Below, piece by piece: positions 1 through 57,627 of a DNA stretch of 57,627 nucleotides (the first letter of the stretch is position 1; every line of letters begins with the position of its first letter). This DNA is from a virus. The stretch lies in the IMG/VR virus record IMGVR_UViG_3300045988_128491. One strand, 5' to 3'. The position numbers were made by a program, and so were the translations under genes. Under the pieces are notes generated by a model. It was not told the DNA's origin. It was given only the letters and a program-made list of their open reading frames with translations, and made no database searches.

Positions 1-87
1 CTCTACTCTCACCACCTGCTAAACAAATATTCACTCTACTCTCACCACCTGCTAAACAAATATTCACTCTACTCTCACCACCTGCTA
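1..87. repeat. 33-bp tandem direct repeat, about 2.6 copies (unit ctctactctcaccacctgctaaacaaatattca). The same array reappears at the window end.
   Basis: Perfect unit copies at 1-33 and 34-66, partial copy at 67-87. Identical units at 57538-57627. Confidence 0.9.
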
Positions 88-149
88 AACTTAAAGCAAC
101 GTCTAATTTTTTTGTTGTGACAAGCTACCCCTGCCAGCTAAACACACTA

Positions 150-665
150 TCATGGAACAAAGCTTTTCCCGCAGTGCGGACATATCACTTCATCTTCTGA
201 CGCAGCATCTGTGGTAATATCCTCATCTGCCTCGTCCTGTGACTGCTCCTTGGCAGGTGAATCCTCAAAGAAATCACCATACCCCTCAGAGGCAGGCATG
301 TCGAATTTAAACTCTGACATATCAAAGTCCATAGCCTGCAGCTCTGCAATTTCAGCATCCAGCTTTTCAAAGTCCCAGCCACTCAGTTCAGAGGTCTTAT
401 TATCGACCAGTCTAAAGGCCTTTACCTGTTCCGGTGTCAAATCTTCCTTTCTAATAACTGGTACTTTTTCGAGTCCCAGCTTCTCAGCAGCCAGCAGTCT
501 AGTATGACCATTAATAACCACATTGTCACTGTCCACAACAATTGGATTTGTGAAGCCAAATTCCTTAATACTTTTGGCTACTGTATCAACTGCCTGCTCA
601 TTGTTTCTAGGATTGTTAGCATAAGGAACCAAGTCCTTTACCGCCATAGCAATTACTTTTACCAT
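150..665 (-). CDS. ParB-like nuclease domain protein (ParB N-terminal domain)
   Basis: Motifs KDLVPYANNPRNN and INGHTRLLAAEKLGLEKVPV match the ParB N-terminal domain. RBS AAGGAGTG lies 7 nt upstream of the ATG at 665. C-terminus has CPHCG. Confidence 0.8.
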   Translation of the reverse strand: MVKVIAMAVKDLVPYANNPRNNEQAVDTVAKSIKEFGFTNPIVVDSDNVVINGHTRLLAAEKLGLEKVPVIRKEDLTPEQVKAFRLVDNKTSELSGWDFEKLDAEIAELQAMDFDMSEFKFDMPASEGYGDFFEDSPAKEQSQDEADEDITTDAASEDEVICPHCGKSFVP

Positions 666-9469: not shown

Positions 9470-9823
9470 TCAACTTCTTAACAATATAGCTTGAGCAGCA
9501 TTGGACAGCATAGAATTGGAAAGAATATCACTTTTTTGTCTTATAAAAGAATTTGCAAGTTTTACTATATCTTCACAGGGAGTGATATACTTACTGCTAT
9601 TCCATAAAATTTTTCCATCATCGGTTATATCATATACTACGAACCTGTACTCATTCACACCTACTTTCAAAGCTAAATCAACTATAACTTTTCGCTCCAT
9701 CCTATTCTGCGTACCGACCAGAACACTTGATAAACACTTGCGTACAGAGGTTTCGTAATCCAAAACTGTGACAATGCCAATGTAGTTTTTATCCATAATC
9801 GGGTTATAAACAACTTTTTCCAT
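9470..9823 (-). CDS. hypothetical protein
   Basis: 117-aa ORF. RBS GAGGAGGTATAGTA then ATG. Confidence 0.55.
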   Translation of the reverse strand: MEKVVYNPIMDKNYIGIVTVLDYETSVRKCLSSVLVGTQNRMERKVIVDLALKVGVNEYRFVVYDITDDGKILWNSSKYITPCEDIVKLANSFIRQKSDILSNSMLSNAAQAILLRS

Positions 9824-10074: not shown

Positions 10075-10349
10075 GCCTGCGCAAGAGACAATAAAAAAAA
10101 CAGCAATATGTCTGACACCACGATAAATTTAAAATGCCTATCATATAATGTGAGAAATTTCTCTTTCGTGACGGATGTATTTACAACAGCCATTATTCCT
10201 ACCTTTAGCATCTCAGAAATTGCCAATATATTAGAATCTATAAGCTGCATGAAATGTATTTGTATTACGGGTACGGTCATTGCCATTGCCATTGCAAAAG
10301 AGAATACTACTGGGCCGACCAACAACCATCTTCTTTGCTTACTGTTCAT
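10047..10349 (-). CDS. membrane protein (3 predicted transmembrane segments), last gene of the paralog operon
   Basis: Hydrophobic segments. Start overlaps the upstream stop. Confidence 0.5.
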   Translation of the reverse strand: MNSKQRRWLLVGPVVFSFAMAMAMTVPVIQIHFMQLIDSNILAISEMLKVGIMAVVNTSVTKEKFLTLYDRHFKFIVVSDILLFFLLSLAQAWKWLLRDI

Positions 10350-10749
10350 TTATTGCCTCTAACATTTTCTCAGTCAGAGCAATAGCTTCTTCCTTAGTCT
10401 TGCAGACAATCCCCATCTTATAACATTCTATATCAAAACAGCTGTTGCCCCAGTAATAATAGTAATGCCTGTCCTCAGGTAGGACAGAAATACGTGGCAC
10501 GTAATATTTCTCACCTTCCCGTGGTTTCCACGGCAGTTTGACAATTCTAATATCACCCATCAAGATACCTCTCAATACTATTGCTGTGGCCGTTTCCCAT
10601 TTAACGCCACCATCTGATGTTTCAAGGCAATTGTTCTCAGTGAATCGATAATAGTTCTGATAATCACCCTGAGTATCAGAACTAATCTTGAAAGGCTCTC
10701 CGAGTTCCACTCCGAGTATTTTTGACACTTCCGCTATGTGATTAACCAT
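10339..10749 (-). CDS. paralog D of a tandem family (KLPWKP motif protein, 136 aa)
   Basis: Shares LGVELGE.F...RFTEN...KLPWKP...Y...G(I/L)V..TKEEAIALTEKML with paralogs A to C. Confidence 0.65.
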   Translation of the reverse strand: MVNHIAEVSKILGVELGEPFKISSDTQGDYQNYYRFTENNCLETSDGGVKWETATAIVLRGILMGDIRIVKLPWKPREGEKYYVPRISVLPEDRHYYYYWGNSCFDIECYKMGIVCKTKEEAIALTEKMLEAINEQ

Positions 10750-11189
10750 TATTCTCCTCCTGTTTTGCTACCGTCTGCAAACCTCTTCTTCGCTACATCC
10801 AGCATTTCCTCCGCTAACTCAATAGCCTCTCTGCTAGTCCTGTAAACCAACCCCTGCTGATAAGAACTTTTATCACCCTTGGAACCAGTCCAAAAAAGCT
10901 TTAAATATTTGCCACTATTTACAACGGATGGCATGTAATAAGTATCACCGTGAGATGGTTCCCAAGGGAGTTTAATAATCTGAAGTGCTCCAGTTATAAG
11001 ACCTTTCCATATCCAAGCTGCCGCACTATGCCAAGAAGTTCTATTAACTGATTCTTTTAGCCCATTTTCAGTAAATTTAAGGTATGTCTCTGAGCAATAG
11101 GTATAACAACCTGAACTCCCCTTAAAGGAGAAAACCTCGTCAAGCTCTACTCCGAGCAAAACTGCTACACTTGACATTTTATTAGCCAT
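10749..11189 (-). CDS. paralog C of the tandem family (146 aa)
   Basis: Same family motifs (LGVELDEVF, KLPWEP, GLVYRTSREAIELAEEML). Confidence 0.65.
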   Translation of the reverse strand: MANKMSSVAVLLGVELDEVFSFKGSSGCYTYCSETYLKFTENGLKESVNRTSWHSAAAWIWKGLITGALQIIKLPWEPSHGDTYYMPSVVNSGKYLKLFWTGSKGDKSSYQQGLVYRTSREAIELAEEMLDVAKKRFADGSKTGGE

Positions 11190-11601
11190 TCTTTTTCACC
11201 TCCTGTACCAGTGTTTTTTCTGCTAGTTCCAGCATCTTCTTTGCTAGTGCTGCAGCTTCATCTGGGGTACTGAAAACTAGCCCGTGTTCGAGTCTATACA
11301 AATCAAGCTCACTATCTCGCCAAACCCAAATGCCAAACATTGCTGTAGGGTCAACGTGTGGCACATAGTATTGCTCCCCATCATCAGGCTTCCACGGAAA
11401 TTTGACAACTGTTACCTTACCATTCAAGAGTTCTCTAAGAATTGAATGCTCAGCAAATGTCCATGATGATGAGCTGTCAAGCAGTCTTTGTAGCCCATCT
11501 TCTGTGAACCTAAAAAGTCCTTGACATTTCTCTATTCGGAACTCTTCTCTCAGCTCCAGGCCTAACAGCTTTGCTACACCTTTCATATAGTTACTCATCA
11601 T
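11182..11601 (-). CDS. paralog B of the tandem family (139 aa)
   Basis: Same motifs (LGLELREEF, KFPWKP, GLVFSTPDEAAALAKKMLELAE...KKNG). Confidence 0.65.
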   Translation of the reverse strand: MMSNYMKGVAKLLGLELREEFRIEKCQGLFRFTEDGLQRLLDSSSSWTFAEHSILRELLNGKVTVVKFPWKPDDGEQYYVPHVDPTAMFGIWVWRDSELDLYRLEHGLVFSTPDEAAALAKKMLELAEKTLVQEVKKNG

Positions 11602-12007
11602 TTGCCTCCTGTGCCACAGCCAGCAACTTCTTCGTCAGTGCAATGGCCTCCTCCTTAGTTCTAAAGACAAGGCCATGATTGAATCTATATATATCAACTC
11701 CATAACCCGTCCATGAACAGCGTCCCCACATAATCGGAGATGAGGGGTCCGAATAACAATACCGATCGCCAATGGCGGGTTTCCATGGTAACTTACGAAT
11801 TGATAAATTGCCGTACAAAAGACCAAGCAATCTGTTATCGTTTGCAACTATCCAAGTATCCTTATCACCAATAGGCGCGGATACTTGTAGGTCGTTGTCT
11901 GAAAATCTAAATACGCAATCTTTTAACGAGGGGTCCCCGTCAACCTGAAAAACTTCTCCTACTTCCACTCCGAGCAGCTTAGCTACTTCCACCATTTTGT
12001 TATCCAT
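11591..12007 (-). CDS. paralog A of the tandem family (138 aa)
   Basis: Same motifs (LGVEVGEVF, KLPWKP, GLVFRTKEEAIALTKKLL). Confidence 0.65.
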   Translation of the reverse strand: MDNKMVEVAKLLGVEVGEVFQVDGDPSLKDCVFRFSDNDLQVSAPIGDKDTWIVANDNRLLGLLYGNLSIRKLPWKPAIGDRYCYSDPSSPIMWGRCSWTGYGVDIYRFNHGLVFRTKEEAIALTKKLLAVAQEANDE

Positions 12008-12925: not shown

Positions 12926-13327
12926 TCACCCCTGCTCGAACAGCTCTAACTGCTTATTATCCTGAATCATGTAGTCCACCCCTATATAATCCAGCAGGTC
13001 TTTCAGCCCTAGCTGATTAATACAGTAGTCGTATATTTTAGGGTGTGTTTTGGCCATAAGCTGATAACGATTGAGGCCTTTGTCGTGATGTACACCGATT
13101 GGACAAAACATACAGCCTGTTCTATCCATCTTGGTTGTAATCAGTACACCTTTCTTATCTCTGACAATATCTCCATATACGCTAGGTATTTTCAGGTCAT
13201 TATCAAGAATATATTGCAATACATCCTGCTGAGTCCAAAATGACAAAGGCATACTTTTGCCTTTAGAAAAAACATTGCAACCATTTTGTAACCAAGCCCG
13301 TTGCCTTAGTTGGGATTCTACGGCCAT
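12926..13327 (-). CDS. C-terminal fragment of a PAPS-reductase-family protein (frame B)
   Basis: Frame stays open upstream to the TGA inside the A9 run of the preceding ORF. GCMFCPIGVHH motif. Confidence 0.5.
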   Translation of the reverse strand: MAVESQLRQRAWLQNGCNVFSKGKSMPLSFWTQQDVLQYILDNDLKIPSVYGDIVRDKKGVLITTKMDRTGCMFCPIGVHHDKGLNRYQLMAKTHPKIYDYCINQLGLKDLLDYIGVDYMIQDNKQLELFEQG

Positions 13328-13349
13328 AGTACCAATTAAAAAACCACAT

Positions 13350-13889
13350 TTATGTTGTTTTTTGTATGCTATAAAAGGCTTTTTTTTTCATAAATTCACA
13401 GCATTTTGGGCTTATTTTGACTGGTGCTTCAAGTAAAAATTTCCACTTCAAGTAATGCGAACTTCTATACTCACTAAGTGTACCATTGTAATTTTTCCCA
13501 TTGATACAGGCAATCGCCCACTCCTTACCTTCTCTTGCTTTCTCAATTTTATTAGCTACTTCTTTACTAGGATATACCCAGCCATATTCCCGAATTACCT
13601 CCCTGAAATTTATTGTTGGCCGTATAATTTCTACATTTCCAATCTGCTTTACATGCTCCTTGACTTCTGGATATTCTAACCCTGTATCACAGTAAACACC
13701 TTTTACATCAGGAAATATGCTTCTTGTTAAATGCAAGAGTACCGTGCTGTCTTTGCCACCTGAGAAGCTAACAACTACATTGCCGTCATAGTGCTCATAA
13801 AATTCAGCAATACGTACCTTGCTCATAGTTATCTTGTCCGCTAATGGCATTTGCAAAAGCTGTTTTAGTTCTTTGTTTGTATGCATCAT
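13350..13889 (-). CDS. PP-loop ATPase of the PAPS reductase / 3'-phosphoadenosine 5'-phosphosulfate sulfotransferase family, N-terminal part
   Basis: VVSFSGGKDSTVLLHL PP-loop. Ends just after a T9 homopolymer (13380-13388), where a 1-nt frameshift would fuse it to 12926-13327. Confidence 0.65.
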   Translation of the reverse strand: MMHTNKELKQLLQMPLADKITMSKVRIAEFYEHYDGNVVVSFSGGKDSTVLLHLTRSIFPDVKGVYCDTGLEYPEVKEHVKQIGNVEIIRPTINFREVIREYGWVYPSKEVANKIEKAREGKEWAIACINGKNYNGTLSEYRSSHYLKWKFLLEAPVKISPKCCEFMKKKAFYSIQKTT

Positions 13890-24389: not shown

Positions 24390-25319
24390 ATGACCGCTAA
24401 AGAATGTGACAAGCTCACACAGCTAACTGAAATTACGGATTTAAAAAAGTATTGGGAGCATGAAGCTTTGGATTTTACCCCCTGGCTTGCCAAGAAGAAA
24501 AATATTGAGTTACTGTCAAAAGCTACAAACCTTAATATTGAGGTGATAGAGACAGAATCCTCCGTTGGTAATTTTTCCGCTGATATTCTAGCCAAGGATC
24601 TGGACAATAACAGAACAATTATTATAGAGAATCAACTAGAGCCTACAGACCATACACACCTTGGGCAAATCATTACATATTTAGCAGGTAAAGAGGCAAG
24701 TATTGTTATTTGGGTAACTAAAAAGGCGCGAGATGAACACATAGCAGCCGTGAACTGGCTTAATGCTCATACGGATGATAGCACTGCATTCTTCTTATGT
24801 GAAACCAAGCTGTATAAAATTGGCGACTCTGCAGCTGCTGTAAATTTTGATGTTATCTGCAAACCTAATGAGTGGGAAAAGGAATCAAGGAGCTCTCTTA
24901 GCACAAAAGAAAAGTATTATTATGATTATTGGTCAGCATTTATTAATTATGCATACAATGTAAAAGAATTCAGCAGTGAGTTTAGGAAAATTACACCGTA
25001 TAAACAGGCTGATTCTCAATTTTATTCCGGTGTAACAGGGTGCTCTATTATCCCCCGCCTGCTACAGAACGGTAAACTGCAGGTAAATTTTAGAATATGG
25101 AATGATAAAAACCTATACCACACTTTAGTTGCAAATAAAGAAGCAATTGAAAAAGCTGTGAGAGTAAATTATGAATGGGCAGAACTTCCTGAGAATAAAG
25201 CAAGCAGGATTTTTATAGAGAAAACATTCAAAAATGCCAAGAGCGAAGAGGCCTTTGCTTGGCTGGCTGAGAACGTTTTAAAAATGAAGAGAACTTTCCA
25301 CAACTATTGCGAGGTGTGA
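24390..25319 (+). CDS. PD-(D/E)XK-nuclease-like protein resembling the DUF4268 family
   Basis: HEALDFTPWLAKK...GNFSADILAKDLDNNRTIIIENQLEPTDHTHLGQIITYLAG (D...E-x-Q nuclease core). 309 aa. Immediately upstream of int and co-oriented with it. Confidence 0.55.
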   Translation: MTAKECDKLTQLTEITDLKKYWEHEALDFTPWLAKKKNIELLSKATNLNIEVIETESSVGNFSADILAKDLDNNRTIIIENQLEPTDHTHLGQIITYLAGKEASIVIWVTKKARDEHIAAVNWLNAHTDDSTAFFLCETKLYKIGDSAAAVNFDVICKPNEWEKESRSSLSTKEKYYYDYWSAFINYAYNVKEFSSEFRKITPYKQADSQFYSGVTGCSIIPRLLQNGKLQVNFRIWNDKNLYHTLVANKEAIEKAVRVNYEWAELPENKASRIFIEKTFKNAKSEEAFAWLAENVLKMKRTFHNYCEV

Positions 25320-25322
25320 TAT

Positions 25323-26531
25323 GTGTCTAAAATAAAAAAAGTTAGAACTAGAAAAAGAGGCAAATCTTACAGTTATATTTTTGAAGCTGGGAAAAAGCCT
25401 GATGGGAAGAGAAATGTCGTAGAAAAAGGAGGCTTTGACACAGAAGAAAAGGCCTATAATGCAGGTATAGAGGCTCTTAATGCTTACCTGCATGGAAACA
25501 TAGCTATCTCCTCAGATAGAATACTTTTTACAGACTATATGGAGCAGTGGCTTGAAAAAGTACACAAATCTGCTGTAGCCCCTCATGTCTATGATATGCA
25601 GGTAAGCTGCTATAGGAATCGTATAGCACCAGCATTCCAAGGCATGTACTTACAGGACATAAAACCTGCGCACATAGATGCATGGTTGAGAATATTAATT
25701 AAAGAAGGGTTAGCTAAGAACTCAATATTAAGCTATAAATCCATACTGCATAGTGCTCTAAATTATGCGGTATATCCTGCTGAATTTATCTCCGTCAACC
25801 CTGCGAGTTTAGTTAAAATACCAAATAATGTAGCTACAAACATTGTTGAGAGAAAAATCATTTCACCTGAAACATATAAAAAGATTATCAATGATAAGCA
25901 GCTAAACCCTGCTGAGAGGCTTGTTGCCATCATTGCTTATCATACAGGTATGAGAATTGCCGAAATCTTAGGCTTAACATGGGAGTGCATTGACTTAGAT
26001 AGAGGACTCATAAAGGTAGCTTATCAGGTGATACGATACAAAGGACAGAGGTACTTCACATCAAAATTGAAAAGGCTTTCCAGCTACAGGGATATTTACA
26101 TAGACCAGGATTTAGTGGATTTGCTGAAAATGTGGCATGACAAGCAGCTAAAATACACAAGTCCTTTTAGCATTATAAATTATGTTGAAGGTATTCCAGG
26201 TAAGATACACATACAGACACAGAAATATTTACCTGAAAATATCATTCCTGTACACTTTGTCTGCCTAAGCAATAAAGGTAAATTGGTATCTTACAGCAAT
26301 GTAGCGGGAAAGCTAAAAAAATATAATCTAAATACCCATTCATTTAGACATACTCATGCAACGATGTTAGTGGAGTCTGGTGCGCCATTAAAGGGTATCA
26401 CAAGCAGATTAGGACATAAAAATGTAGGCCTAACACAAGACATTTATACTCATGCTTCTGAGGCTATTCAGCAGAACACAAGAGATAGTTTTCAGGAGGT
26501 TTTAAATAAAAATAATGCAGACAAAGACTAA
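25323..26531 (+). CDS. int: tyrosine recombinase / phage integrase
   Basis: N-terminal SAM-like region. C-terminal catalytic R...HxxR...Y region (HSFRHTHATML...GHKNVGLTQDIYTHAS). GTG start with GAGGTG RBS. Confidence 0.85.
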   Translation: MSKIKKVRTRKRGKSYSYIFEAGKKPDGKRNVVEKGGFDTEEKAYNAGIEALNAYLHGNIAISSDRILFTDYMEQWLEKVHKSAVAPHVYDMQVSCYRNRIAPAFQGMYLQDIKPAHIDAWLRILIKEGLAKNSILSYKSILHSALNYAVYPAEFISVNPASLVKIPNNVATNIVERKIISPETYKKIINDKQLNPAERLVAIIAYHTGMRIAEILGLTWECIDLDRGLIKVAYQVIRYKGQRYFTSKLKRLSSYRDIYIDQDLVDLLKMWHDKQLKYTSPFSIINYVEGIPGKIHIQTQKYLPENIIPVHFVCLSNKGKLVSYSNVAGKLKKYNLNTHSFRHTHATMLVESGAPLKGITSRLGHKNVGLTQDIYTHASEAIQQNTRDSFQEVLNKNNADKD

Positions 26532-33937: not shown

Positions 33938-35077
33938 CTACCATTTTATATGAATACAACCACTGTTACCGTTACCGCCATTACTACCACCATCATTAGT
34001 GCCACCACCACCACCACCACCACCAGCGGCACCATAAGTGGTACTAAGGTATTTAGAGAAGGTATTGATAACTATAGGGCCAGTTACGGACCCACCAATA
34101 CCACCAGCGCCGCCATAGGCAGGATGATTACTACCACTGCCAGAAAAACTTACTATGCCGCCACTACCGCCGCCACCACCTCTTGCTAAAATAACATTAT
34201 CTATACCAGAGGCACCGCCGCCGCCACCACCGCCACCACCATAAACGCCTTTCCAAGAGCCAATTAAACCGTGACTGCCTATACTACCGCTAGAAAGATT
34301 AGAGGCACCGCCACTACCACCGCCACCATTCGACCCACCTGCGCCGCCGCCACCGCCGCCACCACCTATATGGATTGAATGGGATGATAGAGGGGTTACT
34401 ATTAACGGTACAAAGTCTAGTGCTTCGCCATGCATACCAGCTGCTCCCGCATTAGAACCACCGCCGCCTCCACCACCTCCGCCTCCAACGGCAGTGACTA
34501 CAAGAGTGGACACTCCTTCAGGCACCACAAAAGTATCGTTAGCAGTAAACAGCTTTTCACCATGAGTTGCGTTCCCTCCAGTAACACCTGAGCTTAGTAT
34601 GCCATTAGTGATTGTTAGTCCGTCACCTATTTTTACACCGCCTAGCGTGGTGGCACTAGCTACTGGCAAAGAGTAATTAGACAGTTCATCTAATTTCTTT
34701 TTCTGTGCAGCGGTCATCAGACCGGATGCGCTATCTGTAACTGTTCCGTAGGTTGTATCAGTGAATTTTGCATTTACCGGTACATCAGAATTAACTGTGT
34801 GTCCATTAGCCTTTAGAGCATTATCCGCAGTGGTAGCCCTGCTAACTAAACCTTTATTACCGGACAAGTTAAACAACTCTACCCATGTTGCGCCATCAGC
34901 ATTAAGCTGGTACAGCTTTTGTTCGTCGGTTCGGAAGCACAGCATTCCCGGCTGTAAATTTATAGTAGGAAACGCTGGCCCGCTATTACAGCTGATTGCT
35001 GTTTTATCATTGTTGAGCAGGAGTTCCCTTGATTCTCTCAATGTTTTGTTCTCATCTATTTCAGTATATTTCTGCAC
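33938..35077 (-). CDS. glycine-rich tail fiber protein
   Basis: Poly-Gly runs (GGGGGGGGGS, three times) after an N-terminal tail-fiber-like region. 379 aa. Confidence 0.55.
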   Translation of the reverse strand: MQKYTEIDENKTLRESRELLLNNDKTAISCNSGPAFPTINLQPGMLCFRTDEQKLYQLNADGATWVELFNLSGNKGLVSRATTADNALKANGHTVNSDVPVNAKFTDTTYGTVTDSASGLMTAAQKKKLDELSNYSLPVASATTLGGVKIGDGLTITNGILSSGVTGGNATHGEKLFTANDTFVVPEGVSTLVVTAVGGGGGGGGGGSNAGAAGMHGEALDFVPLIVTPLSSHSIHIGGGGGGGGAGGSNGGGGSGGASNLSSGSIGSHGLIGSWKGVYGGGGGGGGGASGIDNVILARGGGGGSGGIVSFSGSGSNHPAYGGAGGIGGSVTGPIVINTFSKYLSTTYGAAGGGGGGGGTNDGGSNGGNGNSGCIHIKW

Positions 35078-49982: not shown

Positions 49983-51115
49983 TGTTCATTCCTCCTAAAA
50001 ACTCTTCTCCTAGCAAGTGGATTGGTAAAACCTCTCCATCCTCTTAGAACCTCTTGCCAATCTTTCCCGCGCCTATACTCTTCAAGACCTTTCACACCAA
50101 ACAACGCGATTTTCTCCTTTGCAGATAGGCTATCTATATAGTCATGTACAAGCTTTGGATTCGGACTTCTGTTTGGATTTACCTGCCAGATAAACACAGG
50201 AAGTAGATGACATCTACAGTGCGGATGCAGAGGTATGGTCGGCATATATTTTTTTGGATATAGCCCCTTGCCATAACCTATATCAGCATTAGCACATACA
50301 TCGCATTGGTCATGTATGGGGTGATTGGAAGACAACTCCCATCTGTAGCCCCATACATCGGTATCATCACCGTACCTAGCAATATATCCCTCAAACCAAG
50401 CTCTTGCGGTTTCGGTTCTTGCTATGCGTTCAGCTTGATACCGGCTCTTCTCTTCCAGGGCCACTTGTATTGCCTTGTTGATGGCTTCACTCTTATATGA
50501 TTCTAGCGATGCTAATAGATTCTGATATGAAACTCTTAGTGCATCGGTTTTCAGTTCATTTACCTGCTTTTTCAGTTTGTCTATGTCCTGAAATATTTTT
50601 TCCTTATCCGAATTATCACCTATGATAGCTAACGACACATTTCTGGTCATTCTACCAAGGTACTGCGGAATTTCAGCTTTAGGGATTAGCGCACCACTTC
50701 CATATCCATCATACAGCTTTCGGGCAATATTTATGGCTGAGTCTGCATTCAGTAGACCTGCTTTCACTGTATCCCTCACACGCTGTCCTGTATAAGCAGA
50801 CATGCTGTATAACCTTTCGGACAAGTTAACTCCATCCGTTGTCCACACCTGGTCAACGAATTCCTCGTCTACCCTGTCCTGTATTCCTATCTCCGCAGCA
50901 TCAATCACAGCGGAGATAGTTATTTTTCTATTGGAATAGTCAAACCCTTTGAGTGCTAAAGCTATTGAGGTATCCAAATCTTTACCCTCAGCCAGAGATT
51001 CAGCTATCTTTACCTCTGTTTTGATAGCCAATTTTCTGAACTCTTTAGAGTATTTTTCTAGTATCTTTTCAAGCTTCTCACTAAGGGTGTCGTCATTACT
51101 CTTCAATTTGGCCAT
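49979..51115 (-). CDS. minor head protein (SPP1 gp7 / Mu F-like head morphogenesis)
   Basis: 378 aa. C-terminal HPHCRCHLLP motif. Position after the portal gene. Confidence 0.6.
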   Translation of the reverse strand: MAKLKSNDDTLSEKLEKILEKYSKEFRKLAIKTEVKIAESLAEGKDLDTSIALALKGFDYSNRKITISAVIDAAEIGIQDRVDEEFVDQVWTTDGVNLSERLYSMSAYTGQRVRDTVKAGLLNADSAINIARKLYDGYGSGALIPKAEIPQYLGRMTRNVSLAIIGDNSDKEKIFQDIDKLKKQVNELKTDALRVSYQNLLASLESYKSEAINKAIQVALEEKSRYQAERIARTETARAWFEGYIARYGDDTDVWGYRWELSSNHPIHDQCDVCANADIGYGKGLYPKKYMPTIPLHPHCRCHLLPVFIWQVNPNRSPNPKLVHDYIDSLSAKEKIALFGVKGLEEYRRGKDWQEVLRGWRGFTNPLARRRVFRRNEQ

Positions 51116-52508
51116 TGTTAATTCTTTCCTTTAGCTGCTTTTGGGATAACTCCGACATTAAACGATCTGTGGCATTATTGCGGATTTCATTAATGACCGC
51201 ATCGTACTCATCATCAGGAATACCAGTAAGATAAGCCTCAACGGCCTTTATCCTGGCCTGCTTGTTAAACTCAACACCAACATTCAATTCCAGTGCTCTA
51301 GCAACATTGTCTAGCTCTGATGCAATGTCAACAATGCCAAAATCACGGGGATAGATAACTTTGTAATCAATTTCCTCCCCAAAATATGCAGACCAGTATT
51401 TCATGATTTTTTTCTCTGCTACCTCCAGATTTTCTGCCATATCGGCAAGAACCTGATTGGTGTTTTCAAAGTCCCACTGCTTAGCTACACCGCTTGCTTT
51501 AGTTTCGACTGCGGTCACAGATGATAGACTTGCCTGCCTGTACACATCATCAATCAACCTTTGAATCTCGGACTGCAGCAGCTGAGCCTGTGATGCCTCC
51601 GGCGCAATAAAGAATGGTCGCGCTCCAACCTCGCCATCAAACAGCAGCATATCGTTAGTGCCAACCTTAATGCTGGATAGTGCTTTATCAATAGGCACTC
51701 CCTCAGTTACCGGATAGCACAGAATAGAAAAGGCCTGATTCCTCAACAACTCTCGTAACTCGCTTGACAGATTGTAGATGGTCAGATTAGTTCTGGCTAT
51801 GGATATCATAGGTGACAGTGGTAGCAAATCACCATTTTCATGCTCAGTACCAAATACTGGCACCACCGGAATAAAACCTAGATTATTCTTTCCTTTTTCT
51901 ACAACACCATCATGCCGTGTTACCTGCCAATCGGTAGGAGTCCATTTCCATGTATCAGTATCCATCATCACCTTATAGCCAGCAAAAGACTTACTGTAAG
52001 TAGAACCGCACTTAAACTCAATCTCTCTGATGACACCGCTGCTATCACATTTGTAATTGGTGACATTTTCAGGCTTGATGATATAGAGATATGGGTACTG
52101 CCGTTTTTCAATAGCTGACTTCTGTCCCGCTTCAATGGTTCTGTCATTATCGACAAAAACGAAAACAGAACCATATAACTTAGCCATTCGGCAGCACTGC
52201 TTCATAAAGCTATTCATTGTATTACCAAAGCGGTCAACATCTTGTTGAAAGTCACCTATGATGCTGTTACCTCCACCCCAGTCCCTTGCAATTTCTTTGC
52301 GGAAAATCGGATTGGTCAGTGAATCGACAACGGGCTTTACGAAGTTTGAATAGTAACTTAGCCTTCTTCTTCGCAACAGCTTATCTGTGTCCTCCCTGGG
52401 GTGCGGTATAATATAAGTACCTTCAAGGTAGCCGCCGCCCCCTGTGTAGGAGTCGTACAGAAAATCATAATCGTATATAGATACAGTTTCCAAAGTATCA
52501 CCTACCAC
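51096..52508 (-). CDS. portal protein
   Basis: 470 aa, directly downstream of the large terminase. Confidence 0.75.
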   Translation of the reverse strand: MVGDTLETVSIYDYDFLYDSYTGGGGYLEGTYIIPHPREDTDKLLRRRRLSYYSNFVKPVVDSLTNPIFRKEIARDWGGGNSIIGDFQQDVDRFGNTMNSFMKQCCRMAKLYGSVFVFVDNDRTIEAGQKSAIEKRQYPYLYIIKPENVTNYKCDSSGVIREIEFKCGSTYSKSFAGYKVMMDTDTWKWTPTDWQVTRHDGVVEKGKNNLGFIPVVPVFGTEHENGDLLPLSPMISIARTNLTIYNLSSELRELLRNQAFSILCYPVTEGVPIDKALSSIKVGTNDMLLFDGEVGARPFFIAPEASQAQLLQSEIQRLIDDVYRQASLSSVTAVETKASGVAKQWDFENTNQVLADMAENLEVAEKKIMKYWSAYFGEEIDYKVIYPRDFGIVDIASELDNVARALELNVGVEFNKQARIKAVEAYLTGIPDDEYDAVINEIRNNATDRLMSELSQKQLKERINNGQIEE

Positions 52509-53764
52509 AAATTTACATTTCTCGAAGTAACATCCTTTTCATTTCTCATAATTCCAGAACAGCCATACCTTACAGCGTCTATAGCATGGTTATTAACGTC
52601 AGGATAGCAGGAAATGAAGCTCCCGTCTTTATTCCTTGCATACTCATACTTAACAAACTCTTTGTAGGTGTTAGGGCAACGCTCTTTGTCAATATAGATG
52701 TTCCGTCTTTCCTGCAACCACTTTATACCGTATGCAACACTATCAGGACCTTTTTTAGCCCCTATCATGTTGACTCCATAATTTTTGAAAGACTTTATTG
52801 TCCTTGGCTCAGCAGAATCACCTATTACCAGCCCTCTGCCTGCCTTGCTCTTTATCTCCTCTGCAGCTGGCCTGGTATCATAGCTGTATTTGTAAATTTC
52901 ATCAAAGATGTATAGGTCCTCGTGCTTTTTATCATAGTGCATAGCCGCAAAAGCCAAAGGATCTACAGCAAAACCGAAATCACAACCGTAGTGCAGGCGG
53001 TCAAAAAGCTGTATTTTGCTGTCTGACATTCTCATGTCATGCACATTATCAAATACATCACCTCCAGAACCAATAACCTCACCCATGTACTCATGTCGCC
53101 ACAGCTCTTCTCTTTTCCTTTTCAGCTTTTCAGCTTCAGCAATGAATTGTGGGCCTAGCCAATCTTTAGGTATCTGAGTGTAATTAGTGTGGAGTACAAG
53201 TCTATCTGAGTCGTTAAACAGCACTTCCTCATTTACCCAGTTGTCGCGGCTCTTTGGTGGATTGTAAGAATAAAAACACCAAGAAGTATCGCCGCCACGC
53301 AGTAATGACTGGTTGAGGTTTCGTATTTCTTCCATGCTGTCAAACTGGTCCAACTCCTCATACCATGTAACACCTACATAGCCAAAAGCTGGCTTTATGG
53401 ACTTGACTTTCTGTTTATCATCAATACCACGGAATATTATTTTCTGCCCTGTATCTTTGTATGTAAGCTCTAAAGGACTGGTTTTAGCTCTCCATAGGTG
53501 CATTACTCCAAGTTCCTCAATAGCCCACAAAATCTGATTATAAACAGAATCGCGCAGTGTTCGACCTACTTTACGCATAATAACAGCGTGTACGTCCCTG
53601 TTCTTCGGTTGCATTAGCAATAAGGGTATCACTTCGCTGATGGTAGTGGACTTTGCACTGCCTCGACCTCCTGGGAGCCAGTAATGCGTGTGACCATGCT
53701 CCATGACATCAAAAAACCAATCGTCATAGCACGGTGCTATCTTATCTGCAATATTTACTTCCAT
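52502..53764 (-). CDS. terL: terminase large subunit
   Basis: Walker A WLPGGRGSAKS. C-terminal nuclease-like acidic motifs. RBS AAGGAG lies before the internal ATG at 53764. Confidence 0.85.
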   Translation of the reverse strand: MEVNIADKIAPCYDDWFFDVMEHGHTHYWLPGGRGSAKSTTISEVIPLLLMQPKNRDVHAVIMRKVGRTLRDSVYNQILWAIEELGVMHLWRAKTSPLELTYKDTGQKIIFRGIDDKQKVKSIKPAFGYVGVTWYEELDQFDSMEEIRNLNQSLLRGGDTSWCFYSYNPPKSRDNWVNEEVLFNDSDRLVLHTNYTQIPKDWLGPQFIAEAEKLKRKREELWRHEYMGEVIGSGGDVFDNVHDMRMSDSKIQLFDRLHYGCDFGFAVDPLAFAAMHYDKKHEDLYIFDEIYKYSYDTRPAAEEIKSKAGRGLVIGDSAEPRTIKSFKNYGVNMIGAKKGPDSVAYGIKWLQERRNIYIDKERCPNTYKEFVKYEYARNKDGSFISCYPDVNNHAIDAVRYGCSGIMRNEKDVTSRNVNLW

Positions 53765-53814
53765 GCTACAACTCCTTGCAATAAAAAGGCACTCACATTT
53801 CTGCAAGTGCTTTA

Positions 53815-54477
53815 TCAGGCTTTCCTGTTAAATACAAAACTAATAGGGCTGTCTTTTGCAGTCTCCTTTTTCTTCTCTGCCTGCTTTTCTGCTAGCTTAT
53901 TCCTGGACTCAATAGCCCGCACTACTTTTTCCTGTACTTTGGTCAGTGCTTCCTCTATGGCAATAATCTTGTCTACTAGAGCCTGCCTGCACTTTGTTTG
54001 CTCCTTTAAAGATGGATTGTCAGGGCTGAATCCAGCTTCTATAGCGATGTGAGATATTTCCTCAGTAATCATGTCCCTGTCTGCTCTGACTGCCTCTAAA
54101 AGCTCAAACATCCTCTTCTGCCTCACAAGCATTAGACCAATTTCAAAATCCAAGAGCTTTATAGGGTCCCTGTCATAGTTAAGCAGCATATGAGTTTCTT
54201 CAGGTGTCAGTGTGGAAATATCAATTTTAGAGTAGGCTCCTGTTTTCAGGCCGTTCTGTGAACCTTTTGGGGCTCCATGCCCTTTTGCGTTCTGATTGCC
54301 TTTTACTCCACCGCCTAGCCGTTTAGACTTCTGCACCCAGCCATTATCCCGCCAGCGTGCAATAGTGCCAGCTGTTACGCCAACCTCTCTTGCCAGCCTG
54401 CGGATTGGAATCTTACCCTTGCTGTCCTTCCAAATCTGGCAGGCTTTATTAAAGGCTTCTACTTTATAGTCTGCCAA
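53815..54477 (-). CDS. terS: terminase small subunit
   Basis: N-terminal HTH RLAREVGVTAGTIARWR. 220 aa. TTG start with AAGGCGGTG RBS. Confidence 0.6.
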   Translation of the reverse strand: MADYKVEAFNKACQIWKDSKGKIPIRRLAREVGVTAGTIARWRDNGWVQKSKRLGGGVKGNQNAKGHGAPKGSQNGLKTGAYSKIDISTLTPEETHMLLNYDRDPIKLLDFEIGLMLVRQKRMFELLEAVRADRDMITEEISHIAIEAGFSPDNPSLKEQTKCRQALVDKIIAIEEALTKVQEKVVRAIESRNKLAEKQAEKKKETAKDSPISFVFNRKA

Positions 54478-54489
54478 ATCTACACCGCC

Positions 54490-55059
54490 TTAATCCTTAA
54501 CCAGTTTTAAAAATTCCTGTGTGTACAAAAAGCTATCAAACAACCCTTTCTTGCTTATTGTGACAGTCTTTGCACCTGGCTTTTTAATCCCTCTTGCAGT
54601 CATGCAGGAGTGACTGGCTTCTATCCTGACAATGACATCATCGCCGACAATCTTCTGCAGGATTTCCAAAATATCAGTCCCAATTCTTTCTTGTAACTGT
54701 AACCTCTTACAGCACATGTCAACAATTCGTGCTATCTTTGAAAGCCCAATAACTTTACCTTTGCTAGGGTAATATCCGACACTAATTTTCATATCATAGA
54801 TTAAGGCAAGGTGGTGCTCACAGTAGCTAAATGCTTCAATATCCTTTATTACAACCATATCACTGGACTGACAGTCAAAAGTCTTACCATACATCTCTGC
54901 CAGCTGGTCATTTGTGTACTGCATACCTTCCCATACTTCACCTAGCATTTTCGCTACTCTTTTTGGTGTTTCCTCCATGCCTGGTCTCTTATCAGTGTCT
55001 ACACCAAAGCAGGATAGGAGCTGCTTTACTGCAAGCTCTGCTTTTTCTACATCAGCCAT
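54490..55059 (-). CDS. folE: GTP cyclohydrolase I
   Basis: 189 aa. CEHH zinc/catalytic motif. SHSCM. Confidence 0.85.
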   Translation of the reverse strand: MADVEKAELAVKQLLSCFGVDTDKRPGMEETPKRVAKMLGEVWEGMQYTNDQLAEMYGKTFDCQSSDMVVIKDIEAFSYCEHHLALIYDMKISVGYYPSKGKVIGLSKIARIVDMCCKRLQLQERIGTDILEILQKIVGDDVIVRIEASHSCMTARGIKKPGAKTVTISKKGLFDSFLYTQEFLKLVKD

Positions 55060-55062
55060 TCC

Positions 55063-55761
55063 CTAAACACCTCTTTTCTCAGGATCCCAAATATACTTGT
55101 GAAGCTGCAGCTGCAACCGCCAATCAAATTTCTCGTACTTAGTCCGTTTCATAAAGTCCACAATTTCAGCAGGTGTAATCTTGCCAAACACTGGTGATAA
55201 ATACACATTGCCTTTCAACCTGCTCAGGAAGAAATGTGTATAAACATCAGCAGCCTCCTCTAAATCCTCTACACTGCTTACCACAAACTTTACTACATCT
55301 TTAGCCCGTACCTGCTCAAAATTAGGCAGGTACATACTTCCATTCATGCCGGAAGATTTACACTTGTAATCCAAAGTGAAGAATACATTGCTAAATCTCA
55401 GATAATCATTTATTGGCATGGAGCCGTTGCTCTCAATATTTACCTCATGGTACAAGTGCTGTAAATTATCTAATGCTGTCAGCAGACCTGGTAGTGTCTT
55501 ATAATGCATAAGAGGTTCACCGCCAGTAATCGTTACATTCTTACATCTGATATTATCTAAAATATCCTGCACCTGTGTAACTTCGCAATCTTTAGACATA
55601 TCCTGTGCATAGGCTGTGTCACAGTAGGAGCAGTGCAAATTACAGCCATTCAGACGGATAAAGGTAGCCAGCTGTCCTGCTCTTTTACCCTCACCCTCTA
55701 TGCTGTCAAAAATCTCATTAACTAAGAATCCCTGGTCAGGTATTGTCATAAATGGCAACAT
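55063..55761 (-). CDS. queE: 7-carboxy-7-deazaguanine synthase (radical SAM)
   Basis: CNLHCSYCDT radical-SAM cluster motif. About 232 aa. Confidence 0.85.
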   Translation of the reverse strand: MLPFMTIPDQGFLVNEIFDSIEGEGKRAGQLATFIRLNGCNLHCSYCDTAYAQDMSKDCEVTQVQDILDNIRCKNVTITGGEPLMHYKTLPGLLTALDNLQHLYHEVNIESNGSMPINDYLRFSNVFFTLDYKCKSSGMNGSMYLPNFEQVRAKDVVKFVVSSVEDLEEAADVYTHFFLSRLKGNVYLSPVFGKITPAEIVDFMKRTKYEKFDWRLQLQLHKYIWDPEKRGV

Positions 55762-56068
55762 TGCCCTCACTCTCCTGTACTTTTACTCTCACACAATTCG
55801 GTACTTTGCCGCAAATCCACTTTGCTATATTTTCTGCTGTAGGATTGCGCAATAGCACATCATTCAAATACTGATGATCCAGCTCCTGTCCAATAATATT
55901 TTTGATGTGCTTAAAGTCAACCACCATGCCCTGCTCATTAAGCTCTTTAGCTTGGCAGGTTATTTCAATTATCCAGTTATGACCATGCAGTCTAGTGCAG
56001 GGACTCTGATAATTAAGTGCCAGCTTATGAGCTGCCGATATTTCTAATCTTTTTGTTACTGTGTACAT
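55736..56068 (-). CDS. queD: 6-carboxy-5,6,7,8-tetrahydropterin synthase
   Basis: 110 aa. ISAAHKL...HGHNW motifs. GGAGG RBS. Confidence 0.85.
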   Translation of the reverse strand: MYTVTKRLEISAAHKLALNYQSPCTRLHGHNWIIEITCQAKELNEQGMVVDFKHIKNIIGQELDHQYLNDVLLRNPTAENIAKWICGKVPNCVRVKVQESEGNVAIYDNT

Positions 56069-56070
56069 GC

Positions 56071-56769
56071 TTAAACCTCCAATGCAGGGTCCTTTACTCC
56101 ATTAGCTTCAAATGCCTTGGCTCTGTCAATGCAGGTGCCACAAGTACCACAAGGTCTATCTCCACCCTCATAACAGCTCCATGTTAAGCGGTATGGTGCT
56201 TTAAGCTGTATCCCCAGCTTAACCACTTCTGCTTTATTGAGATAAATCAGCGGAGCCTCTAACCGACAGGTAAATCCACTGCCTGCATAAATAGCTCTAT
56301 TCATGCTCTTAAAAAACTCAGGTGTGCAATCGGGATAAGCCCTGCCTGCTGCATCATCAGCGTGTGCACCATAATAAATAACCTCAGCTCGCACAGAAAC
56401 AGCTATAGAGGTTGCGTAGGCCAGCATAAGACCGTTTCTAAATGGTACATAGGTGTCTACCGTACCACAATCCCCCATCTTAGCCAGCTGTTCAGCATAG
56501 GACTCATGCTTGATTTCTTTATGCGAGCTAGCCAATAGCGGGCAGTCACTTAATCTAAAAGCCTCTGACAAATCGGCTTCCATGTGATTTACCCTGTAAT
56601 AGTTTGCTACTGCTTTTGCACTCTTGATTTCTTTTTCGTGCTTCTGTCCGTAATGTACAGACAGGGCCAGCACATTATTATTGCCATATATAGCAACGGC
56701 TTTTGCTAGGCAGGTAGTAGAGTCAATACCACCGGATAGCAAAACTATTGCCTTATACTCTGACTTCAT
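56071..56769 (-). CDS. queC: 7-cyano-7-deazaguanine (preQ0) synthase
   Basis: LLSGGIDSTT PP-loop. C-terminal CGTCGTCIDR zinc motif. GGAGG lies 8 nt before the internal ATG. Confidence 0.85.
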   Translation of the reverse strand: MKSEYKAIVLLSGGIDSTTCLAKAVAIYGNNNVLALSVHYGQKHEKEIKSAKAVANYYRVNHMEADLSEAFRLSDCPLLASSHKEIKHESYAEQLAKMGDCGTVDTYVPFRNGLMLAYATSIAVSVRAEVIYYGAHADDAAGRAYPDCTPEFFKSMNRAIYAGSGFTCRLEAPLIYLNKAEVVKLGIQLKAPYRLTWSCYEGGDRPCGTCGTCIDRAKAFEANGVKDPALEV

Positions 56770-56861
56770 TTGAAAAACCTCCACTTTCCTTGACATACTC
56801 CCACCTAAGAGGTGGAAATCTTCTGGCTAAAAAGATAAAAATATACATATTTATTTCTACC

Positions 56862-57476
56862 TTACAAACAACCTACAGCCCATTTCTGAAATTTAACCCA
56901 CTCTTTGAAATTGTGTGTGGCAACTGCTACAGAATCTCTCATCCTGGTGCCCTCGGGCTTGCGAATCTGCACCATCTTTTTACCATTAAATTTATACAAG
57001 TATCCAAACCTGCACCCCGCCAGCCATGCAGTACTGTCAACGCTGTTAAAATGACACATAGGCAGCCATTTCATGCTGGTGAACCCCAGCCCGTGAATCT
57101 TAGCTTTTCTTCTGTGTGCCTCTGCTATTAACTTAGGTAGCACATGGTAATGCTTTGGCTCTATTTCCTTGCTCACAATACCACCTAGGGCAACATAATC
57201 ATGCTCCTCACACATTTTTTCAAATTCATATTTCCCTCTGGACCTATGCCATACTGGGATGCACTTCTTTCCAGTTTCTCTATTTATGTACTCTCTAAGC
57301 TCCAGCACTTTCTTATAACCCAAAATGCAATCAACATCCATTTCAAAAAAGTGCTTTATATTATTCTCATTGACGTAAGCAATATATTTGTCTACATAGG
57401 CCGTGAAATCTGCTTTTGTGTACTGCTTAGTACCCTGCATAAAAGAAAAAGCACCTGAGTCCAGCATGTAGAATGG
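56862..57476 (-). CDS. dpdA: tRNA-guanine-transglycosylase-like DNA transglycosylase (DpdA family), start uncertain
   Basis: MLDSGAFSF (compare the TGT DSGG[FY]Q catalytic motif) and FEMDVDCIL (compare TGT VDMFDC). Sits directly upstream of queC, queD, queE and folE. The track ORF extends artefactually into the 33-bp repeats. Confidence 0.5.
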   Translation of the reverse strand, partial: PFYMLDSGAFSFMQGTKQYTKADFTAYVDKYIAYVNENNIKHFFEMDVDCILGYKKVLELREYINRETGKKCIPVWHRSRGKYEFEKMCEEHDYVALGGIVSKEIEPKHYHVLPKLIAEAHRRKAKIHGLGFTSMKWLPMCHFNSVDSTAWLAGCRFGYLYKFNGKKMVQIRKPEGTRMRDSVAVATHNFKEWVKFQKWAVGCL

Positions 57477-57537: not shown

Positions 57538-57627
57538 GGTGCTAAACAAATATTCACTCTACTCTCACCACCTGCTAAACAAATATTCACTCTACTCTCA
57601 CCACCTGCTAAACAAATATTCACTCTA
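57538..57627. repeat. 33-bp tandem direct repeat, about 2.7 copies, identical to the units at 1-87
   Basis: gctaaacaaatattca, then two full units, then ctcta. Confidence 0.9.

Follow-up and report, generated by a model that had tools for sequence, protein, structure and literature searches.

The 57,627-nucleotide (nt) IMG/VR virus record IMGVR_UViG_3300045988_128491 (the window, by which we mean this whole stretch of DNA) carries a 2'-deoxy-preQ0 (dPreQ0) module of the type found in phages Rosebush (of Mycobacterium) and CAjan (of Escherichia), a known anti-restriction system in a new phage. According to open reading frame (ORF) calls and profile searches over the whole window, five minus-strand genes are arranged in the transcription order dpdA-queC-queD-queE-folE and are followed by terS, terL and the portal gene. 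We consider it likely that this region is an operon with which the phage modifies its own DNA after replication, inserting preQ0 (7-cyano-7-deazaguanine). A preliminary description had already pointed to five tightly spaced genes leading into the terminase, and all of these ORFs are present, with intergenic gaps of 2 to 65 nt and a QueD/QueE overlap of 35 nt. It had also ended the region at 57476, which falls 81 nt inside dpdA and clips its 5' end; the GTG start is at 57557. Three features lie beyond that description: a ParB-like gene across the contig junction, an 18-codon deletion in dpdA, and at least three exact 33-bp repeats. The features are:

54490..55059, minus strand: folE, GTP cyclohydrolase I, which opens the pathway (GTP to H2NTP)
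55063..55770, minus strand: queE, radical S-adenosylmethionine (SAM) 7-carboxy-7-deazaguanine (CDG) synthase, with the cluster motif CNLHCSYC
55736..56068, minus strand: queD, 6-carboxytetrahydropterin synthase
56071..56796, minus strand: queC, preQ0 synthase of 241 amino acids
56862..57557, minus strand: dpdA, putative DpdA1-type DNA-guanine transglycosylase, 231 amino acids from the GTG at 57557
57540..57627, minus strand: exact tandem repeat of a 33-bp unit, of which this end has 2.7 copies (TRF, 100% match, period 33)
1..90, minus strand: remaining half of the dpdA-proximal 33-bp tandem repeat, across the contig junction (TRF, end overlaps)
150..665, minus strand: ParB-like N-terminal-domain protein of 171 amino acids, with GxxRxxA and a C-terminal CPxC
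53815-54477, minus strand: TerS
52502-53806, minus strand: TerL
51096-52508, minus strand: portal, downstream of TerL

The two ends of the window overlap by 71, 38 or 5 nt, inside the 33-bp tandem repeat; this makes the contig either circular or terminally redundant and puts the ParB-like ORF (665..150) directly upstream of dpdA. The nearest usable dpdA start is the GTG at 57557, and further in-frame GTGs at 57590 and 57623 lie within the repeat. The terminase pair was assigned jointly (phrog_1889, 1.5e-36; PF04466, 1.5e-36; PF17288, 2e-18). Coding is almost all on the minus strand, and GC skew is negative along the whole window. There is no terminator-like site between the module genes (the single minus-strand match is at the terS-terL junction), which fits co-transcription with the packaging genes; promoter and terminator scans in general did not rise above shuffled expectation. 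Neither a preQ1 riboswitch nor any other RNA reached the Rfam gathering score, whether ahead of queC or window-wide.

The complete GTP-to-preQ0 pathway claimed in the preliminary description is borne out, with FolE, QueD and QueC above curated cut-offs and QueE just under. The profile support lies well outside what chance would give. FolE matches PF01227 (4.5e-54), NF006826 (202.6 bits vs a cut-off of 162) and phrog_2197 (9e-51); QueD matches PF01242 (8e-30) and TIGR03367 (93.4 bits vs 89.25); QueC matches PF06508 (1.5e-56), TIGR00364 (172.9 bits vs 150.3) and the PADLOC QueC profile (3e-32). QueE hits the Clostridial-type model TIGR03963 at 4.3e-77 with 258.7 bits, 1.4 bits short of the equivalog cut-off of 260.1, and also PF04055 (8e-11) and phrog_2076 (3e-43); given the 35-nt overlap with queD, its true start may lie a few codons inside the annotated one. 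All the motifs quoted earlier are in the translations: CEHH in FolE, HGHNW in QueD, CNLHCSYCDT in QueE, both the PP-loop SGGIDS and the C-terminal zinc motif CGTCGTC in QueC, and MLDSGAFSF in the transglycosylase. QueC stands alone, with no fused glutamine amidotransferase (GATase), and the PHROG families agree with the pathway gene assignments. Purifying selection is evident against the related locus L004 (82% DpdA identity), with dN/dS (non-synonymous over synonymous substitution rate) of 0.06 to 0.13 for dpdA, queD, queE, folE and the ParB-like gene; queC is not in the comparison because L004 lacks it.

Since standard profile searches with the TGT-like ORF gave nothing, its membership in DpdA was set by PHROGs, hhalign and fold comparison. 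The ORF matches phrog_887 ('queuine tRNA-ribosyltransferase') at 9.6e-47. A 102-sequence profile of its family aligns with a DpdA1 reference set (Escherichia phages Greed and JenP2, Pseudomonas phage Quinobequin-P09, Streptococcus phage Dp-1 and Mycobacterium phage Rinkes) over 201 columns with an hhalign probability of 99.9% and an E value of 2.8e-32; Greed is a Seuratvirus, the genus of CAjan, and JenP2 a Nonagvirus, the genus of Enterobacteria phage 9g. Against Rosebush gp2 alone the probability is 97.6% (E 2.9e-12). The AlphaFold2 model of the window protein (pLDDT 94.5, pTM 0.90) predicts a TIM barrel of the tRNA-guanine transglycosylase (TGT) superfamily. When it was compared with BFVD by Foldseek, the top 31 hits (E about 1e-3 or better) were all viral, many were named queuine tRNA-ribosyltransferase, and none belonged to another fold class; Foldseek against the Protein Data Bank (PDB) gave an agreeing picture. 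We therefore file the protein as a probable DpdA1-type DNA-guanine transglycosylase of a short, uncurated clade of about 250 amino acids. This clade is very large: the protein is matched by over 3,000 clusters built at 90% identity and by 2,850 cluster representatives at 50% identity (E up to 1e-3), and a Pfam domain is carried by none of the 120 best family hits. Matches of the ORF to ADP-ribosylarginine hydrolase in the standard searches were chance hits.

The residues that would form the active site are conserved throughout this family. Numbering from the 253-amino-acid ORF and counting over 102 aligned sequences, D55, S56, E94, D96 and G180 are invariant, and H126, H177 and D196 are each kept in 101. 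The wider invariant or near-invariant set comprises D55-S-G-A-F59; E94, D96 and D98; H126 (in PVWH); H177-G-L-G180; and S194, D196 and S197. These map onto residues whose roles are described in the Salmonella enzyme, bDpdA (PMC10164549). The D55-S-G-A-F59 segment (F59 in 99 of the 102) aligns with LDSGAFSA of DpdA1, from which we assign D55 as putative general acid/base and F59 as putative gate residue, compare bDpdA Asp95 and Phe99. D196, in FNSVDSTAW, aligns with YSCDSSSW of DpdA1 and is assigned by alignment as the probable nucleophile, equivalent to bDpdA Asp256 and TGT Asp280. Candidates for base recognition, again from alignment, are D96 (D98 is also conserved) and H126, which align with LDGIGD and PCFH of DpdA1; the reference residues here are bDpdA Asp130 and His181. 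H177, in KIHGLGF, aligns with an invariant His of the DpdA1 references that is at position 196 in the 9g-like JenP2 protein, and we assign it as the likely equivalent of 9g His196, the residue that separates DpdA1 from DpdA2 (PMC6884629). A damaging substitution at N193 (FNSVDS vs the consensus FDSVDS) was considered and rejected: the column is variable (D in 70, Y in 25, N in 3), and the invariant Asp is three residues on.

Could such an enzyme act on RNA instead? The module might supply preQ0 for host queuosine, or the TGT-like enzyme might work on tRNA rather than DNA. The window protein does share the TIM barrel and the acid/base and nucleophile Asp motifs with bacterial TGT and archaeal ArcTGT; it differs from them in having no match to the TGT profiles of Pfam (PF01702) or NCBIfam, no zinc subdomain or CxCxxC...H, about 140 fewer residues, and a DNA substrate as the presumed target. 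It ends about 57 residues past the nucleophile Asp, which leaves no room for a zinc-binding C-terminal tRNA-binding subdomain. Its profile likeness is to DpdA1, for which DNA modification has been proven genetically, deletion of dpdA in CAjan causing loss of dPreQ0 (PMC6884629). Its gene is moreover paired with that of a putatively DNA-binding ParB-like protein; no tRNA genes were found in the window, and no QueA, QueG or QueH in the Pfam scans of its ORFs. We regard an RNA-directed role as very improbable.

The closest known arrangement is that of Rosebush, where dPreQ0 takes the place of about 28% of G (PMC6884629). The gene order is the same: gp1 is ParB-like, gp2 DpdA, gp3 QueC, gp4 QueD, gp5 QueE, gp6 FolE and gp7 terminase. 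Both phages have the minimal enzyme set without amidotransferase or QueF, and their DpdAs are homologous, although at only about 22 to 29% identity and with 385 amino acids in Rosebush vs 231-250 in the window. The Rosebush ParB-like protein (263 amino acids, 25% identical) differs in that its gene overlaps dpdA by 4 nt; the Rosebush host belongs to the Actinobacteria, whereas that of the window phage is probably a member of the Clostridia, and the window phage has an integrase. Rinkes keeps the Rosebush-like order with one additional gene between ParB-like and dpdA and another between folE and terminase. With the DpdA1 of the Queuovirinae (CAjan, which makes dPreQ0, and 9g, which makes dG+) the window protein shares the subfamily by profile, the DSGAF, PxxH, HGxG and SxDS motifs including the 9g His196 equivalent, and co-encoded preQ0 genes. 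The Queuovirinae differ in having folE or a small hypothetical gene upstream of dpdA, not a ParB-like one, and a longer DpdA (about 306-317 amino acids) with a C-terminal extension missing from the window protein; 9g also has Gat-QueC.

The ParB-like gene is probably a sixth component of the module, judging from its position and conservation. Its product matches PF02195 (1e-6) and phrog_620 (2e-56). Of 63 loci from this DpdA clade (IMG/VR and ENA) for which 900 nt or more of upstream sequence was available, 62 have a ParB-like ORF that ends just upstream of dpdA. Such a gene also precedes dpdA in Rosebush and in Fusobacterium phage phiFN37 (a 4-nt gene overlap in both), and in the related loci L004 and L005; in the Queuovirinae and Dp-1 the upstream neighbour is not ParB-like. 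The ParB/Srx nucleotide-binding motif GxxRxxA (G53, R56, A59) is kept in 66 to 69 of 70 ParB-like proteins, and CPxC in 57 of them. Bacterial DpdA depends on a ParB-like ATPase, DpdB (PMC10164549), and the bacterial Dpd system (Salmonella Montevideo, PDB 7ui4) shares with the window both the pairing of a ParB-superfamily gene with the transglycosylase and the three-Asp active-site logic. The differences are these: the window has no PADLOC Dpd match and no dpdC to dpdK neighbours; bDpdA has 413 amino acids with insertions; DpdB has DGQQR and a C-terminal helical domain, whereas the phage protein is a 171-amino-acid ParB_N protein with GxxRxxA; and phage anti-restriction stands against a host restriction-modification system. 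We considered the ParB-like protein as a DpdB ortholog and rejected this, as its PADLOC match is only to the MTase_II ParB-like N-terminal region and to no DpdB model. ParB is not mentioned in the two principal papers on phage DpdA; a 2025 paper reports that ParBc proteins are frequent companions of phage DNA-modifying enzymes, with a function not known.

Several observations weigh against reading the region as a working DNA modification operon. First, the TGT-like ORF has no match in the Pfam, NCBIfam or PADLOC profiles, the last including DpdA, and against PDB chains by sequence it gave chance hits only, with single-sequence and profile searches alike. The preliminary description had called this ORF DpdA and had listed a failure against DpdA or TGT profiles as counting against that name; in the literal sense this failure does occur (with TGT in Pfam, with NCBIfam and with DpdA in PADLOC), while phrog_887 and the hhalign match to DpdA1 uphold the identification. 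All three collections miss the short DpdA clade, so standard annotation overlooks such modification systems. Second, the beta1-alpha1 loop/helix segment, present in L012 (98% DpdA identity) and nearly all family members, is gone from the window dpdA, and activity may have been reduced or lost through this deletion. Third, the ParB-like protein is of a type that occurs fused to phage DNA methyltransferases, the 9g DpdA functions in E. coli without a phage ParB (PMC6884629), and the proposed partnership of DpdA with the ParB-like protein is read from synteny. Finally, what is known of modification in this phage comes from its sequence.

Relative to L012, the window dpdA has a 54-nt (18-codon) in-frame deletion between two GTTTAGCA microhomologies: L012 reads a Shine-Dalgarno (SD) sequence, GTG and then MNICLAGQDPTRKDKQENMRKSLAPFILESF, and the window reads MNICLA|PFILESF. 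P0007, an intact homolog, is modelled with residues 2-6 (NICLA) as strand beta1, then the part missing from the window protein as a loop and helix alpha1 (13-23), and FILES as beta2; in the model of the window protein the leftover NICLA forms no strand. The module could thus be genuine with a dpdA that is crippled, an inactive seven-stranded barrel beside which preQ0 would be made and not inserted, or its 5' region could be mis-assembled, for the position of the repeat coincides exactly with the contig ends, where assemblies typically go wrong. We think this unlikely. The deletion is in frame and lies between its microhomologies within contiguous sequence. The remaining protein is 98% identical to that of L012, with a dN/dS of 0.24 (from only five synonymous and five non-synonymous differences; the value against L004 is 0.11), and its model is confident. 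The annotated Rinkes DpdA, from a Rosebush-like dpdA-queCDE-folE operon, begins just ahead of the ILESF-equivalent strand and so is naturally without beta1-alpha1, and the start of some other homologs is called downstream of the deleted segment. The conserved remainder, the confident model and the Rinkes start speak for a deletion that is not necessarily fatal.

The same junction varies in other ways. The 33-bp unit consists of the SD-like AGGTGGTGAGAG, GTG and the codons for NICLAGGESR, and duplicates the ribosome-binding site and start of dpdA; it is repeated exactly at least three times over the contig junction (3.2 to 5.2 copies in total, depending on the true overlap), vs one copy in L012 and two in P0004. 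The interval from the ParB stop to dpdA (window about 100-155, minus strand) contains an A-tract, which is A7 here against A9 in L012 and L004. The 278-amino-acid proteins P0001 and P0005 imply A8; in these an ATG overlapping the ParB stop (ATGA) reads into DpdA, and only A8 puts this ATG into the dpdA frame. The difference in the A-tract among near-identical genomes could be phase variation or sequencing noise. Diverged duplication of this N-terminal segment recurs elsewhere: among 91 related loci, 20 have the beta1-like MK[IL][FY]LAG two or three times, in diverged form, in-frame upstream of the core. We tentatively raise the possibility that DpdA of this clade works only as a two-component enzyme with the ParB-like protein, a phage counterpart of DpdA-DpdB. 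The junction of the two genes, with its A-tract of 7, 8 or 9, the repeat doubling the ribosome-binding site and start, and the microhomology deletion of alpha1, also looks hypermutable, and such changes could perhaps switch or tune modification between near-identical phages.

Which base would the operon insert? The preliminary description held that queF, dpdC and Gat-QueC are missing, and none was found in the Pfam scans (about 85 further window ORFs, as concatenated pseudo-proteins) or the PADLOC scans (16 window ORFs), three large structural ORFs standing outside both. The Pfam scans returned no QueF, ArcS, GATase, second PTPS (DpdL-like), formyltransferase or methyltransferase, and the PADLOC scans no Dpd component, DpdC included. 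We know of no Pfam model for DpdM. The markers of the dG+, dPreQ1, mdPreQ1, fdPreQ1, dDG or dADG variants (Gat-QueC, ArcS, QueF/QueF-L, DpdM, DpdN, DpdL, DpdC) are thus lacking among the scanned ORFs. Since these scans of the window turned up neither QueF, ArcS, Gat-QueC and DpdC nor a methyltransferase, dPreQ0 would, by the standard inference, be the expected base in the DNA of this phage, as the preliminary description had predicted.

A different final base (dADG, dCDG or a further-modified one) would arise if DpdA preferred an intermediate of the pathway or if an unannotated ORF modified the product. DpdA has changed its substrate preference several times, DpdA2 being a promiscuous enzyme (PMC10516641), traces of dADG occur also in Rosebush (PMC6884629), numerous window ORFs are without annotation, and close relatives carry a class-I methyltransferase in place of queC, so that the clade can use chemistry other than preQ0. 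The window QueC, however, scores above the QueC equivalog cut-off and is unfused, the scanned ORFs contain none of the tailoring enzymes named above, and the identical five-gene set yields dPreQ0 in Rosebush and CAjan (PMC6884629). We consider another base quite improbable. Pantoea phage MED16, which has dADG, was examined as a counter-example to dPreQ0 and set aside as not comparable, since it encodes DpdA only.

The operon reading then suggests the following mechanism. FolE, QueD, QueE and QueC would turn GTP into the free base preQ0. The small TIM-barrel DpdA would swap guanine in double-stranded phage DNA for preQ0 by a TGT-type double displacement, with Asp55 (DSGAF) as putative general acid/base and Asp196 (SVDS) as putative nucleophile of a covalent enzyme-DNA intermediate. 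The ParB-like protein would most likely load or target DpdA, as an accessory that binds DNA or depends on NTP, in parallel to bacterial DpdA-DpdB. The genes of the operon have no terminator-like site between them and lie between those for replication and those for the terminase, which suggests that modification would take place before or during packaging. The outcome would be dPreQ0 in the phage genome, blunting host restriction. Of all this, the analysis shows what the genes are, the fold of the protein, the conserved residues and the synteny; catalysis, the base inserted, the part played by the ParB-like protein and the gain against restriction are inferred.

The relatives place the module in context. 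The whole arrangement, from SNF2 helicase to large terminase, is kept in L012 and in L005 (63% DpdA identity). Downstream content was counted wherever 3.5 kb or more of sequence follows, among L012-L091 (80 IMG/VR loci) and L004-L006. After ParB-like and DpdA, 23 have only a Vut_1/YhhQ-type transporter, 22 have queC-queD-queE-folE and 13 have queC with a transporter; queD-queE-folE without queC (two) and methyltransferase variants (three) are rarer. Where queC goes together with a transporter, CDG or a similar precursor may be salvaged. In L004, which has the same synteny, and likewise in L047, L050, L037 and L052, the queC slot holds a class-I SAM methyltransferase (273 amino acids, L004:10769-11590; PF13489, PF08241 and PF13649; weakly UbiG-like), followed by queD-queE-folE or by a queuosine-precursor transporter. 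It is set apart from DpdM by description, DpdM being said to have a unique fold. In these variants the pathway could stop at 7-carboxy-7-deazaguanine, with methyl transfer giving an undescribed 7-deazaguanine derivative.

No close relative was found among GenBank phages, where a DNA-level search gave only short matches of 65-72%. Relatives in genome collections were mostly Clostridia metagenome-assembled genomes, with one Veillonella scaffold, at a best identity of 55%; with no relative above that value, the scan did not pin down the host. The host is probably a member of the gut Firmicutes, class Clostridia, and the match of QueE to the Clostridial-type model fits Firmicutes. The window encodes a tyrosine integrase (25323-26531, plus strand) and helix-turn-helix regulators, and the phage is therefore probably temperate. 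Its replication genes comprise a family A DNA polymerase, a VapE-type primase-helicase, an SNF2 helicase and an Enc34-type single-stranded DNA-binding protein; a DUF2800 nuclease and an amidase endolysin are also encoded.

Several other loci in the window deserve mention. The sole plus-strand block (24390-26531) holds a DUF4268 protein, which matches the PADLOC candidate defence family PDC-S11 (1e-97), and then the tyrosine integrase; it is a lysogeny module with a probable prophage-encoded defence gene. At 12926-13889 (minus strand) a PAPS-reductase-like gene (a PP-loop protein similar to DndC/BrxP/SspD) is split into ORFs of 179 and 133 amino acids in different frames, which correspond to successive portions of phrog_424; either the gene is frameshifted or the sequence contains an error. 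In phiFN37 the PAPS-reductase-like gene is intact and lies beside a ParB-like gene. Four tandem paralogous ORFs of 136 to 146 amino acids (10339-12007, minus strand) share the motifs LLGVELxExF and KLPWKPxxGExYYxP; they have no Pfam match, and the one scanned against PADLOC had none there. The ORF at 9470-9823 (minus strand) matches the RnlB antitoxin family PF15933 (2.5e-9) and may be a phage counter-defence against RnlA/LsoA-type toxins. A 379-amino-acid ORF at 33938-35077 (minus strand), probably a tail fibre, has glycine-rich runs that register as several short tandem repeats of period 9 to 15.

These results extend an experimentally grounded DNA modification, 7-deazaguanine, to gut Firmicutes phages that are uncultured and seemingly temperate. 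Further study is merited by three additions: the conserved ParB-like partner, the rearrangement at the 5' end of this dpdA and the relatives with a methyltransferase for queC. DNA containing 7-deazaguanine withstands many restriction enzymes and can skew the sequencing and cloning of gut viromes. The near-universal ParB-like partner hints at how phage DpdAs find or open DNA, and the exchange of queC for a methyltransferase in close relatives suggests that further 7-deazaguanine bases may exist.

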